Positions 2,004 through 23,362 of a stretch of DNA of 64,000 nucleotides are shown here, in pieces. The translations under genes and the position numbers were made by a program. The DNA comes from Escherichia coli (GTDB lineage Bacteria; Pseudomonadota; Gammaproteobacteria; Enterobacterales; Enterobacteriaceae). The DNA lies in NCBI RefSeq assembly GCF_050320075.1, contig NZ_CP190019.1; one strand, given 5' to 3'. Numbering within the stretch: the stretch's first letter is position 1; every line of letters starts with the position of its first letter. The notes under the pieces were generated by a model, which had not been told where the DNA came from, searched no databases, and was given only the letters and a program-made list of their open reading frames with translations.

Positions 2004-2685
2004 GAGTTATTTTTCACGTAGCACACGCACTGTTTATGGATACAGGTATTCTGACCTGAACGCCCGGATCCTTCCACGACAATAAATCGCAGCGCGCGGA
2101 TCCTTTTGTTTGATTATCACGCATTATTGCGGGTAAAACCAAATACATAAAGGCGCATTTTGCCGCTGGGATCCCGTCTTAAGCCAGTCATGGTGCGGGC
2201 TGAGGGCTGGTTTACCGTTTTTGGGAGAATTGGGGTAATGCCAGGACAGGCAGAAACGGAGAAAAAATCCTGCAGACGCCCTTAAAAGACAACTGAAAAT
2301 TTCTGACTCCATATTCCTCTGGTTTCAGACTGCTTAATCACATCATCAACCTGATACATAACAAACAGATTCTGTTCACAGAATGAACAATTAAGTAAAT
2401 GGTTAGATTATGCGAAAAAGTACAGATATTTCTCACCATCGTTATTGAATAATATGTCTTCACACAAACAATATTAATATTTTGAGTGTAAGCCCTGACT
2501 CAAAGAAAGAAATGTCTGTTTTCGGAATCAAAAATATATAGTTATCAAAATACATTAATTTCAAATTTGAAATTAATGTAAAACGATTTAGTAAATGTTA
2601 TGATATTATAAATCTACTCCTCCATGTTTAGAGGAGTATTTGCAGACTGGACGCTCTTATATAGTTACTTACCTTTATACATATT

Positions 2686-16939: not shown

Positions 16940-17845
16940 CTATATTTCCAGACATCTGTTATCACTTAACCCATTACAAGCCCGCTGCCGCAGATATTCC
17001 CGTGGCGAGCGATAACCCAGCGCACTATGCGGATGCCATTCGTTATAATGCTCGAACGCCTCTGCAAGGTTCTTTGCTGCCGTTAACCCGTCTGGTTTGG
17101 GCATGATACTGATGTAGTCACGCTTTATCGTTTTCACGAAGCTCTCTGCTATGCCGTTACTCTCCGGACTCCGCATCGCCGTGTTCTTCGGTTCAAGCCC
17201 CAACATCCGGGCAAACTGCCGTGTTTCATTAGCCCGGTAGCATGAACCATTATCCGTCAGCCACTCTACTGGAGACGCCGGAAGCTCGTTGCCGAAGCGG
17301 CGTTCCACCGCTCCCAGCATGACGTCCTGTACTGTTTCACTGTTGAAGCCGCCCGTAGTAACCGCCCAGTGCAGTGCCTCACGGTCACAGCAGTCCAGCG
17401 CGAACGTGACTCGCAGTTTTTCTCCGTTATCACAGCGGAACTCGAACCCGTCAGAGCACCATCGCTGATTACTTTCTTTCACAGCCACTCTGCCTGTATG
17501 TGCCCGTTTCGATGGCGGTACAGCAGGTTTTCGCTCAAGCAACAGCGCATTCTGGCGCATGATCCGGTAAACACGTTTGGCATTGATCGCAGGCATACCA
17601 TCAAGTTCTGCCTGTCTGCGAAGCAGCGCCCATACCCGACGATAACCATACGTGGGCAGCTCTCCGATAACATGGTGTATACGGAGAAGCACATCCGTAT
17701 CATCAGTGTGACGACTGCGGCGGCCATCCATCCAGTCATCGGTTCGTCTGAGAATGACGTGCAACTGCGCACGCGACACCCGGAGACAACGGCTGACTAA
17801 GCTTACTCCCCATCCCCGGGCAATAAGGGCGCGTGCGCTATCCAC
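16940..17845 (-). CDS. insD: IS2 OrfB (InsD, 301 aa)
   Basis: [46 protein letters not shown]… with DDE integrase core. Confidence 0.85.
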
Positions 17846-18221
17846 TTTTTTGCCCGTCCATATTCAACGGCTTCTTTGATTCTTTGAGGAGTTCATTTTC
17901 CATCGTTTTCTTGCCGAGCAGGCGCTGGAGTTCTTTAATCTGCTTCATGGCGGCAGCAAGTTCAGAGGCAGGAACAACCTGTTCTCCGGCGGCGACAGCA
18001 GTAAGACTTCCTTCCTGGTATTGCTTACACCAGAGAAATAACTGGCTGGCTGCTACACCATGTTGCCGGGCAACGAGGGAGACCGTCATCCCCGGTTCAA
18101 AGCTCTGCTGAACAATTGCGATCTTTTCCTGTGTGGTACGCCGTCTGCGTTTCTCCGGCCCTAAGACATCAATCATCTGTTCTCCAATGACTAGTCTAAA
18201 AACTAGTATTAAGACTATCAC
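17838..18221 (-). CDS. insC: IS2 OrfA (InsC) with altered C-terminus caused by 8-bp insertion
   Basis: [40 protein letters not shown]… but ends …[17 protein letters not shown] instead of the recalled canonical …[14 protein letters not shown]…. Confidence 0.7.
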
Positions 18222-18787: not shown

Positions 18788-19096
18788 ATGCAGGATAATA
18801 AGATGAAAAAAATGTTATTTTCTGCCGCTCTGGCAATGCTTATTACAGGATGTGCTCAACAAACGTTTACTGTTGGAAACAAACCGACAGCAGTAACACC
18901 AAAGGAAACCATCACTCATCATTTCTTCGTTTCGGGAATTGGACAAGAGAAAACTGTTGATGCAGCCAAAATTTGTGGCGGTGCAGAAAATGTTGTTAAA
19001 ACAGAAACTCAGCAAACATTCGTAAATGGATTGCTCGGTTTTATCACTTTTGGCATCTATACTCCGCTGGAAGCCCGGGTATATTGCTCACAATAG
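18788..19096 (+). CDS. iss: Iss (increased serum survival; Bor-family lipoprotein)
   Basis: MQDNKMKKMLFSAALAMLITGCAQQTF… lipobox LITGC; about 100 aa; classic ColV-plasmid gene. Confidence 0.85.
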   Translation: MQDNKMKKMLFSAALAMLITGCAQQTFTVGNKPTAVTPKETITHHFFVSGIGQEKTVDAAKICGGAENVVKTETQQTFVNGLLGFITFGIYTPLEARVYCSQ

Positions 19097-19955
19097 TTGC
19101 CCATCGATATGGGGAGCTCATCTGCACTGTTCATTAATATACTTCTGGGCTCCCTACAGTTGTTTTTGCATAGTGATAAGCCTCTCTCTGAGGGAGGAAA
19201 TAATCCTGTTCAGCGATGTCTGCCAGTCGGGGGGGCTGCATTATCCACGCCCGAGGCGGTGGTGGCTTCACGCGGGGATGGGCAGATTGATCTGATATGC
19301 AACCGACGACGACCAGCGGCAACATCATCACGCAGAGCTTCATTTTCAGATTTGGGCCACCTTTTGATTTCTCGTTTAACTTTTGCAGTCACCAGACTGT
19401 GATTTATTTTAACAAATCAATAGCTTTCATAAAATTCTCGAAGCTGAAAGCTTAACTGAACCAACCAGCCTGGCTGGTGTTTTCTAAAGACAAAAAGGCC
19501 ATCAGCAAAACACTGATAGTCTGAATCACCTTTATCAATCATGTATGAAGAAAATATGCGCAATTAGTTGACAGTGATTATCATTTTCATTAAAAAGAGC
19601 GCGTAGCATTCTTATTTCATGAGGAAATTTACCCGCCAACAACCTGAGTAGCGAAAGCTGTTCATCCCCAATATTTTTGCTGGCGGGTTCTTTTTTCTAC
19701 TGTCCTCCTCCCCAGAGGAAGCATTCCCATTAATCATTACTGGCGAGGAGGCAAGAGAAAAAGTCGGTTCTTTGTCCCTAAATAACAGCATCATTTCAGT
19801 CCATGCAAAATCTGATTTACCAGCTCACATAATAACCTGATGATACACAGTGTAAGTTCACAGAGATATTGCAATTGCCTCCGGATAAGTAAGGGGAGAT
19901 TGCACTATGCAAATGCAGCACCTGAGGTTGGCTATCCTAAGCAGCCGATTATGCG

Positions 19956-21011
19956 TTGAGGCTTTCAGTGATGGCTGATATAGCAACAATGAGAATGAAG
20001 GCTCTGCACTTCTGGGATAAACACGGTATTTCTGCAGCTTCTGAAGCCTTTGGCGTATCCTGCCGCACGCTTTACTGGTGGCGTCAGTTACTGATCAAGG
20101 GAGGACCTGAGGGGCTAATCCCGCACAGTAAGGCACCTCTGGTGCGACGAAAAAAGCACTGGCATCCCGATGTGCTGAAAGAGATTCGACGCCTCAGGAC
20201 AGAGCTGCCGAACCTCGGTAAAGAGCAGATTTTTGTTCGCCTGAAGCCCTGGTGCGCATAACGCCATCAGACCTGCCCGAGTGTTTCCACCATCGGCAGA
20301 ATGATCGCCACCGCACACGATAAAATGCGGATGATACCAGTACGTCTGAGCTCGCGGGGTAAGGCTCTGCTTGTCAAAAAGCGAACCACCCCCCCCCCCC
20401 CCCGCAGGCCAAAGCACTACCGTCCGGTAAAGACAGGAGAGCTCATTGGGATGGACGCCATTGAGCTCAGAATGGGTGAAATGCGTCGCTATATCATTAC
20501 CATGATCGACGAACACAGCGATTATGTACTGGCGCTGGCTGTGCCGTCGCTCAACAGTGATATCGTCAATCACTTTTTCAGCCGTGCAGCCCGGCTGTTC
20601 CCTGTCGGTATCAGCCAGATCATCACAGATAACGGGAAAGAGTTCCTGGGAAGCTTTGACAAAACGCTGCAGGAAGCCGCCATCAAACACCTCTGGACCT
20701 ATCCCTACACGCCAAAAATGAACGCTATCTGTGAACGTTTTAACCGGGCATTAAGAGAGCAATTCATTGAATTTAATGAAATTTTACTCTTTGAGGATCT
20801 GGCGTTGTTTAACCTGAAACTGGCGGAATATCTGGCGCTGTATAACAGCAAAAGACTCCACAAGGCGCTCGCACTAACGACGCCCGTGGAATATATTTTA
20901 AAAGAGAACAAAAATTGCAATATGTGGTGGACCCATACACAGCAAACGCACAGGCCGCCCCGGTTGGGTAGATATGTGGGATGGCTGGTTCAGACTTCAG
21001 GATATGGTTGA
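19956..21011 (+). pseudogene. Transposase-like gene (HTH + integrase core), split into two ORFs, with a 15-C homopolymer
   Basis: ORFs 19956..20261 and 20301..21011; second has rve-like core (…DNGKEF…YTPKMNAICERFN…); poly-C at 20389..20403 encodes PPPP. Confidence 0.45.
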
Positions 21012-21782
21012 GGCTGGTGATGAAGTCTCTTTATCAGGAGATCTGATCAAGAGACAGCCGCGCAGGGGGATTCACTATGCTGGATTCTTTTAACAAATTC
21101 TCCGCTAACCAAAAAATAGACTTTTTGCATTCGTAAATGCGTTAAGAGATAATTTTTAAAGTTCCATCAATCTCCCGGCCAGTTCGTCTCGCGGCATTAC
21201 TCACTATCCGCACAACTTCAGTAAGATCATGACTTTTTCAATCGTTATCTGTTGACCAAGCTTTGAAACCACTAGCGTCCCGTCAACCTGACCTGGAATC
21301 GTCGAGAACCGCCCATAGTTGTGAATTGGCTAGAGTGTGATGGAAAGCAACGCTAAACGACCTAGTCACACATTCTCTTTTCCCTAACAATGACCATTTA
21401 GTGAAATAACGTATCCAAAATGATGACGTGAAAGCCTGATACTGGCAGCGAAAAGCCGAAAAAACTCACCTGGTCAGGAGCAAAAATCGGATTATTCGCC
21501 AACAGCGTAATATCAGCAGTAGTTCTCGACACGCTTGCGCTATAGACAGAGGATGAAACGCTGCTGGTCGGAGTTCTCTATACATTTTTGGCGACGGCAG
21601 AACCGCTCACCAATGCCTTAACGTCTATCAGCCTTCCGGTGAGTTGGAACAGCATGCTCAGCGTTTGCAAGATATTCTCCACGGTCTGTAGCAGCGTAGG
21701 TTTCAATTTAAATATCCCCAGATAGCCCTCTGGGAGCTTCCCTTTTTATTAAGTTTTAATTACCGTTGCAATAGTTAAATGA

Positions 21783-21805: not shown

Positions 21806-22246
21806 ATTTGTGTCTGTGTTGTTTCTGGTAAGGCTGAAAGGGAACAAACATCGCCTGTACAACGGCGTTTTTACTTACAGACCAGCGAAGGCGAGACTAT
21901 CAGGATGATGCATCGTGTGTCTAAGAAATCACGGTTCTTTCCAGATTCGTTGTTCGGTCTAACACTGCACAAATGCGTCAGAACATCCCGGCGTAGCTGT
22001 CCGACGCCATTTGGGCTGTTCAACAGGACAATGGCGCGTAAGCGTTAATGGAAGTGGGGATACGGAGTTCCCTGTTCACCTGTGTATGTCACGGAAAAGT
22101 CTCTGACTGAGCTGTCCATAACGCTGGTGAAGCACAAATGGCGCAGCATCTGGTAAAGCAGGTTTAACGAAAAGTCGTGTCCTGCTGCTGGCATATGAGT
22201 GCGTCGACTGCCTGATTTAGATCGTCAAGCGGAGAGGGATTTTCTC

Positions 22247-23362
22247 ATGCGTATTTTGTTTGTAGGCCCGCCTCTCTATGGGCTGTTGTATCCTGTGCTG
22301 TCTCTGGCGCAGGCATTTCGCGTTAACGGTCATGAAGTGCTGATCGCCAGTGGAGGACAATTCGCACAAAAAGCGGCAGAGGCCGGGTTGGTGGTGTTTG
22401 ACGCCGCACCCGGTCTGGATTCCGAAGCTGGTTACCGCCACCATGAGGCACAGCGGAAAAAAAGTAATATCGGAACCCAAATGGGCAACTTCTCATTCTT
22501 CAGCGAAGAAATGGCCGACCATCTGGTGGAGTTTGCCGGACACTGGCGGCCTGACCTCATCATCTACCCTCCGCTCGGAGTCATCGGGCCGCTGATTGCC
22601 GCCAAATATGATATACCGGTCGTGATGCAAACCGTAGGCTTCGGCCATACCCCCTGGCATATCAAGGGTGTAACGCGTTCGCTCACGGACGCCTATCGTC
22701 GCCACAATGTGGGGGCCACACCACGTGATATGGCCTGGATCGACGTAACACCGCCGAGTATGAGCATTCTGGAAAACGACGGTGAACCCATTATTCCGAT
22801 GCAGTACGTCCCGTATAACGGTGGCGCGGTGTGGGAACCATGGTGGGAGAGAAGGCCCGAGCGTAAACGTCTGCTGGTGAGTCTCGGCACTGTCAAACCG
22901 ATGGTTGACGGCCTTGATCTAATCGCCTGGGTTATGGATTCTGCCAGTGAGGTCGATGCCGAGATCATCCTGCATATTTCAGCCAATGCGCGGTCCGATT
23001 TGCGCTCGCTGCCGTCAAATGTTCGCCTGGTTGACTGGATACCCATGGGTGTCTTCCTCAACGGCGCAGATGGTTTCATTCATCATGGCGGAGCAGGCAA
23101 TACCCTGACAGCGCTACACGCTGGTATTCCACAAATCGTCTTCGGCCAGGGAGCCGATCGCCCGGTAAATGCCCGCGTTGTTGCCGAACGCGGCTGCGGG
23201 ATTATCCCTGGCGACGTCGGCCTGTCGAGTAACATGATCAATGCTTTCCTCAACAATCGCTCACTTCGCAAAGCCTCTGAAGAGGTAGCAGCGGAAATGG
23301 CGGCGCAACCCTGCCCAGGTGAAGTGGCGAAAAGCCTGATCACAATGGTACAGAAAGGGTAA
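22247..23362 (+). CDS. iroB: IroB, enterobactin C-glucosyltransferase
   Basis: MRILFVGPPLYGLLYPVLSLAQAFRVNGHEVLIASGG… GT-family fold; first gene of iroBCDEN. Confidence 0.9.
   Translation: MRILFVGPPLYGLLYPVLSLAQAFRVNGHEVLIASGGQFAQKAAEAGLVVFDAAPGLDSEAGYRHHEAQRKKSNIGTQMGNFSFFSEEMADHLVEFAGHWRPDLIIYPPLGVIGPLIAAKYDIPVVMQTVGFGHTPWHIKGVTRSLTDAYRRHNVGATPRDMAWIDVTPPSMSILENDGEPIIPMQYVPYNGGAVWEPWWERRPERKRLLVSLGTVKPMVDGLDLIAWVMDSASEVDAEIILHISANARSDLRSLPSNVRLVDWIPMGVFLNGADGFIHHGGAGNTLTALHAGIPQIVFGQGADRPVNARVVAERGCGIIPGDVGLSSNMINAFLNNRSLRKASEEVAAEMAAQPCPGEVAKSLITMVQKG

Follow-up and report, generated by a model that had tools for sequence, protein, structure and literature searches.

Contingency loci with phase-variable poly-C or poly-G tracts are familiar from Neisseria, Haemophilus, Campylobacter and Bordetella. 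In another well-described setting, some insertion sequences (ISs) use programmed transcriptional slippage at runs of A or T (PMC1088944). Homopolymers are also mutable in their own right: in E. coli the indel rate grows exponentially as a run lengthens, and at 8 bp G.C runs already stand out as outliers and hotspots (PMC8510543). Interruptions stabilise repeats, according to the parts of PMC4102424 consulted here. We describe a run of 15 C's within an insertion sequence that touches on all three settings, and we put at about 85% the probability that it is a neutral, slippage-prone homopolymer that arose in an already dead, ISKpn28-like transposase gene of the IS481 family.

The tract is real and far beyond chance. 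The sequence-only reading had reported 15 consecutive C's inside a transposase-like gene, and both parts of that description hold. The run is exactly 15 nt long, and it is the sole homopolymer above 9 in the 64-kb window (the whole stretch of DNA analysed), for which a base composition model predicts ~8e-5 runs of at least 15 C's or G's. The surrounding gene carries HTH_28/HTH_32 and rve/rve_3 domains and matches the NCBIfam IS481 family model (E=1e-61). Two open reading frames (ORFs) named by the same reading, 19956..20261 (101 aa) and 20301..21011 (236 aa), are both present, and the second reads ...KKRTTPPPPRRPK... across the tract. The element, its gene and the tract comprise the following features.

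19850..20940, plus strand: ISKpn28-like insertion sequence of the IS481 family; both ends are present and the transposase gene is a pseudogene.
19850..19877, plus strand: left terminal inverted repeat, GTGTAAGTTCACAGAGATATTGCAATTG; ISKpn28 has exactly this left end.
19907..19909, plus strand: original transposase start ATG, preceded by the Shine-Dalgarno-like GGGGAG; its offset is that of the annotated start in ISKpn28 and in the intact E. coli copy, but the remainder of the gene no longer lies in its frame.
19925..19939, plus strand: two 5' deletions found by alignment to uninterrupted relatives, 1 nt lost between 19925 and 19926 and 10 nt (AAGTACTACC) between 19938 and 19939.
19956..20261, plus strand: ORF1, the HTH part, 101 aa (HTH_28, E=6.6e-7), ending at the in-frame TAA.
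20259..20261, plus strand: in-frame TAA nonsense codon, which is CAG (Gln) in uninterrupted relatives.
20301..21011, plus strand: ORF2, the rve (DDE catalytic) part, 236 aa (rve, E=2.8e-11; rve_3, E=1.2e-11), continuing past the right inverted repeat into the flank.
20389..20403, plus strand: poly-C tract C15 (poly-G on the minus strand), a hypervariable homopolymer derived from ancestral CCAAACCCC.
20913..20940, plus strand: right terminal inverted repeat, AATTGCAATATGTGGTGGACCCATACAC, matching the right end of ISKpn28.

Both strands at the tract were scanned for bracketing hexamer pairs, and no sigma-70-like promoter or terminator-like site was found there. A minus-strand TTGACA downstream of the tract, read by eye, has no -10 box at the proper distance. 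We rejected a promoter-spacing role for the tract, as no promoter-like hexamer pair flanks it on either strand. An antisense ORF that contains the poly-G run (20115..20690, 191 aa) has no Pfam match and was treated as spurious.

The element sits in a conserved stretch of plasmid DNA. Positions 19700..21300 are 100% identical to the E. coli plasmid pVM01 (NC_010409.1, IncFIB/IncFIC), and the IS lies between iss upstream and iroB/iroC downstream, within the iss-iroBCDEN region conserved in ColV-type plasmids; iroB starts 1.8 kb downstream of the tract. DNA homology to ISKpn28 extends from 19849 to 20939 at ~74-76% nucleotide identity, and this span together with the two matching inverted repeats delimits the element at 19850..20940. 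In plasmid sequence free of the IS, homology to the window begins at ~20939. E. coli chromosomal copies share 87-94% nucleotide identity with the window copy.

Several observations bear on the element's place in the IS481 family. Its terminal inverted repeats are shared with a named IS481 member, both ends being as in ISKpn28, and intact copies at 87% nucleotide identity are annotated as IS481 family transposase. The NCBIfam model NF033577 (transpos_IS481) aligns over profile positions 2-283 of 284 with 209 bits, just under its curated cut-off of 224 bits, a score that fits the lesions of the gene. No target-site direct repeat flanks the element (ACACA at 19845..19849 versus AGCAA at 20941..20945), whereas the ISKpn28 copy compared has CTCCT on each side; the missing duplication suggests a later rearrangement at one end. 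No other copy of this IS occurs within the 64-kb window. The element goes unmentioned in the pAPEC-1 paper, and as far as we searched, IS481 does not appear in the ColV plasmid literature.

The neighbourhood has further features of its own. An IS2-family transposase gene lies upstream of iss on the minus strand (16948..18176, coordinates transferred from the pVM01 annotation). After the iss gene itself (18788..19096), which encodes a bor-like lipoprotein, come minus-strand Rz/Rz1 spanin pseudogene remnants (~19180..19392, transferred PGAP annotation), and these parts (18788..19392) form a lambda-like prophage fragment adjoining the IS. The plasmids pABW_A33a and pXH989-CTX have an IS26 copy in place of the iss-proximal sequence directly upstream of the IS481-like element (window-equivalent ~19489). 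Downstream, the mechanically called iroB ORF, 22199..23362, opens with GTG at 22199. AMRFinder gives iroB the coordinates 22247..23359, and the 16 leading codons of the mechanical ORF probably lie outside the gene. In neither the window copy (20913..21011) nor the ISKpn28 copy (2597..2637 of its record) does the transposase ORF meet a stop inside the element. It passes through the right inverted repeat and terminates in flanking DNA, and PGAP flags several copies as 'missing C-terminus', in accord with an ORF that runs out of the element.

Judged by its sequence, the transposase gene is dead whatever the length of the tract. We compared it with uninterrupted relatives, namely ISKpn28, a chromosomal copy in NZ_CP027118.1 (~94%, survey query) and an intact annotated transposase copy (~87%). 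Near the 5' end, the 1-nt and 10-nt deletions shift the frame of the N-terminus and so leave the ATG at 19907 out of frame. Further downstream, the TAA is found in 20 of the 20 ColV-type copies read, including that of pFORC82_2, in which the tract site is still ancestral. With the TAA at 20259 and the deletions at 19925-19939, an intact transposase ORF is absent, and ORF2 lacks both an HTH domain and a Shine-Dalgarno sequence before its ATG. In other plasmids, PGAP treats this sequence as a pseudogene ('frameshifted; internal stop; incomplete'). The chromosomal copy in NZ_CP027118.1, situated between galF and yegH, has an uninterrupted ORF and ancestral CCAAACCCC.

The two ORFs had been described as separately framed, which proved incorrect. 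Both starts are divisible by 3, and translation of 19956..21011 in one frame gives a single frame broken only by the TAA at 20259..20261. This bears on the idea that the C run serves programmed recoding, in which polymerase or ribosome slippage on the run would be used by the IS for transposase expression. Transcriptional slippage at homopolymeric runs is known in IS elements (PMC1088944), and a long C run could give rise to heterogeneous transcripts. The two ORFs, however, share one frame, and what parts them is a stop codon rather than a frameshift. In ISKpn28, as in the E. coli copy encoding WP_001178372, the transposase is one continuous ORF and the site has no run; a slippery run is not conserved in functional copies, which carry CCAAACCCC or AGCGTCAAACCC-type sequence with a single ORF. 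The run is instead a recent, derived state confined to the pseudogene lineage. We regard recoding as the least probable of all the readings considered here.

How the tract came about can be read from its relatives. Chromosomal and intact relatives carry CCAAACCCC in frame, as ACC ACC AAA CCC CGC (T-T-K-P-R), and ISKpn28 has KKRSVKPRRPK, of equal length, at this site. The ColV-type plasmid pFORC82_2 combines ancestral CCAAACCCC with the TAA. Other ColV-type plasmids have CCAAACCCCC, in which one extra C causes a +1 frameshift, or CCAACCCCCC, CCACCCCCCC or C10, and the series from CCAAACCCC through CCAAACCCCC, CCAACCCCCC and CCACCCCCCC to C10 was read in 11 records. Total site length stays constant at 10 nt through the A-to-C steps. 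Two lineage SNPs flank the tract.

20525, plus strand: T is derived; C is found in the outgroups, the CCAAACCCCC allele and pFORC82_2, and T in all others.
20095, plus strand: T is derived; the outgroups have A, as do the tract alleles AAA and AAC.

A further SNP, at 21440, switches along with 20095 at the transition from the AAC to the ACC allele. Taken together, the derived states at 20525, 20095 and 21440 form a nested set that follows the succession of tract alleles, and this nesting polarises the series as AAA, AAC, ACC and CCC, followed by length change. The associations of 20095 and 20525 held in six further plasmids, one of them from Salmonella Kentucky. Of 7 substitutions across 2215 homologous bases, 3 hit three adjacent tract positions (P ~9e-8 under uniformity), a clustering that marks the site as a hotspot for substitutions as well as for indels.

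Pure tracts vary widely in length. Four plasmids aligned over 1601 columns are identical but for the tract, which has 15, 12, 10 or 9 C's. We extended this comparison by a survey with a 215-nt query, taking tract length as the matched span minus 200; it matched 619 PLSDB plasmid records and 1245 E. coli RefSeq records. Tracts of 13-17 C's occur in 51 PLSDB records (18 C13, 9 C14, 10 C15, 12 C16 and 2 C17), and one further record has C18. Nine of the ten C15 records, pVM01 among these, are exact over the whole query. For shorter pure tracts, a 60-row PLSDB sample gives rough estimates of ~10 C8, 41 C9, 52 C10, 21 C11 and 62 C12; all allele frequencies here come from systematic 60-row samples rather than a full census, and the records are phylogenetically non-independent.

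Interrupted plasmid alleles span exactly 210 nt in all sampled rows (26 from PLSDB, 18 from RefSeq E. coli). Likewise, 24 of 24 sampled E. coli genome rows at 93-95% identity, 23 of them chromosomal, span 209 nt. Length variation is limited to pure tracts, from 8 to 18 C's, and such confinement to uninterrupted tracts is the behaviour expected of slippage. The suggestion that the run is a slipped-strand hotspot is thus borne out, as otherwise identical plasmids carry 8 to 18 C's; the contrary case, an invariant tract, is not what the related plasmids show. One chromosomal record, NZ_CM172715.1 (2768182..2768394), has a span of 213 nt at 96.3% identity and fits none of the allele classes. The 90-95% identity band as a whole holds 499 E. 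coli records, and the whole query matches up to 38 places per genome.

Because several sequencing platforms are error-prone at homopolymers, we considered whether the C15 run, or its length variation between records, is a sequencing or assembly artefact, as had also been suggested from the sequence alone. A few records do carry signs of error. The sequence of pDM0133 (NC_024956.1) is disturbed around the tract (AACCCA-C14-GCCCAGG, the flanking bases having surplus C's on either side), and this looks like local sequencing error rather than a true allele. Two same-study plasmid pairs with the same tract start coordinate (CP099022/CP098970 and CP057791/CP057819) differ by one C, 16 versus 17, which could reflect slippage in the very recent past or a single miscalled base.

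Independent records nevertheless agree too well for error to explain the tract. Exactly 15 C's are present in nine PLSDB records, eight of them other plasmids, from chickens, pigs, sheep and pet food. Separately sequenced near-clonal plasmids are concordant, with C16 in three members of one accession series (137,192-137,235 bp), C13 in three plasmids of 123,211 bp and C13 again in two of 142,200 bp. Tracts of 13-18 C's occur in 52 PLSDB records, including the older reference plasmid pAPEC-O1-ColBM (C16). The interrupted intermediates, moreover, are substitutions and not length errors, each being present in many records and linked to flanking SNPs. An artefact is accordingly unlikely. The tract and its polymorphism appear to be real, although any single count may be off by one and some differences between records are possibly error.

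A hypermutable tract inside a coding sequence raises the question of phase variation. We rebuilt the tract in silico with 6 to 19 C's and translated the resulting ORFs. The first segment remains 101 aa long at every length, because the TAA sits 128 nt upstream of the tract. ORF2 is open, at 233-237 aa, with 6, 9, 12, 15 or 18 C's, and the remaining lengths give 40-55 aa. The sequence-only reading had proposed that the tract might switch the gene between frames and that gaining or losing one C might fuse the two ORFs. The first proposal stands in so far as ORF2 toggles between ~235 aa and 40-55 aa. It fails for the transposase, since what toggles is a tail without an HTH domain, in a gene with at least three other lesions. 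Fusion does not occur at any length from 6 to 19, the break being the upstream in-frame TAA, and no length variant in this range yields a continuous transposase, the very outcome named beforehand as speaking against a switch. With the TAA and the 5' deletions lying upstream, tract length is irrelevant to transposase function.

These results weigh heavily against a contingency locus in which tract slippage turns the transposase, or the 236-aa catalytic ORF2, on and off. Such a locus would have a hypermutable repeat that varies among close relatives, and the tract provides one, with 8 to 18 C's in otherwise identical sequence. High length polymorphism and the toggling of ORF2 both speak for the idea, as does the share of the in-frame lengths 9, 12, 15 and 18, which make up about half of the sampled pure-tract records against one third expected, a figure uncorrected for shared ancestry. 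A contingency locus would also switch a functional product, and here no length from 6 to 19 gives a continuous transposase: given the upstream TAA and the two 5' deletions, an HTH-bearing enzyme is restored at none, and the ATG of ORF2 has no Shine-Dalgarno sequence. Functional relatives have no run at this site. Inactivation preceded the tract, pFORC82_2 having the TAA together with the ancestral site, and the alleles most common among ColV plasmids have a fixed, out-of-frame length. ORF2 is truncated in most relatives, which carry 10-nt alleles. It is open in pVM01 because 15 = 9 + 6, so that the ancestral frame was restored by accident. We therefore consider phase variation very unlikely, and nothing suggests selection for switching.

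A narrower version of this idea concerns ORF2 by itself. With 9, 12, 15 or 18 C's, its predicted product might be made and have an effect in trans, such as interference with the related, intact IS481-family transposases of many E. coli chromosomes. If so, the tract would be an accidental phase-variable modulator of transposition, a prospect to which we assign a still lower probability than to phase variation of the locus as a whole.

We instead favour the birth of a neutral homopolymer in a dead gene, in an order of events that the comparisons show and by mechanisms that we infer from it. Before the tract formed, a CAG-to-TAA nonsense mutation inactivated the transposase; the 5' deletions are also present and may have come before or after the TAA. 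The ancestral ACC ACC AAA CCC CGC then gained one C to give CCAAACCCCC, with its +1 frameshift. Next, the three A's changed to C singly in the succession AAA, AAC, ACC, CCC, beginning with the A that adjoins the 3' C run, the longer one. The order and clustering of these changes suggest a mechanism in which the nascent strand slips in the run, realigns and leaves a substitution at the run edge. Kunkel's misalignment mutagenesis is the same class of event. That slipped strands can realign to give substitutions is documented for polymerases in the parts of PMC3643592 consulted here. Finally, the uninterrupted C10 became length-unstable, presumably through replication slippage, and spread to C8-C18, including the C15 of pVM01.

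The tract has little functional importance, and the known genes of the plasmid are unaffected. Its interest lies in an unusually complete natural record of how a long homopolymer is born: the intermediates all survive in sequenced plasmids, linked SNPs give their order, and length instability begins when the last interruption is lost. Interrupted and pure alleles, together with tract length, are possible slow and fast markers for ColV-type virulence plasmids from poultry, livestock and human isolates. The locus also counsels caution in annotation and assembly: the 236-aa 'gene' of pVM01 exists only through an in-frame tract length, and one-base differences between records should not be over-read.

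Set beside the systems described at the outset, the locus resembles each in part. Like ISKpn28 and IS481 elements, it has terminal inverted repeats (GTGTAAGTTCACAGAG...CCCATACAC) and an HTH domain ahead of an rve DDE domain, in a single-ORF layout running through the right inverted repeat. Unlike them, the window copy is a pseudogene with 5' deletions and a TAA, joined in most plasmids by a +1 frameshift; it lacks a flanking direct repeat and carries a homopolymer absent from functional copies. With the transcriptional-slippage sites of ISs (PMC1088944) it shares a homopolymer in an IS transposase gene, but those sites are conserved A/T runs joining ORFs of different frames, whereas the C run described here is not conserved and sits downstream of a stop codon in the shared frame. 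The parallel with contingency loci is a long G.C homopolymer within an ORF, differing in length among close relatives and shifting the downstream frame. In contrast to those loci, the host gene here is dead at any tract length, functional homologues do not share the tract, and no promoter depends on it.

The likeness to microsatellite birth, as far as the consulted parts of PMC4102424, PMC2940325 and PMC3622297 describe it, extends to the course of events: substitutions removed interruptions, and only the uninterrupted tract became length-polymorphic, the interrupted alleles here, with C runs of 4-7, being invariant in length. The feature is ordinary in kind and a tidy example of repeat birth. 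It differs from the microsatellite cases in that the evidence is comparative rather than rate-based, and in that the repeat is a mononucleotide G.C run on a bacterial plasmid, with all its intermediates extant.
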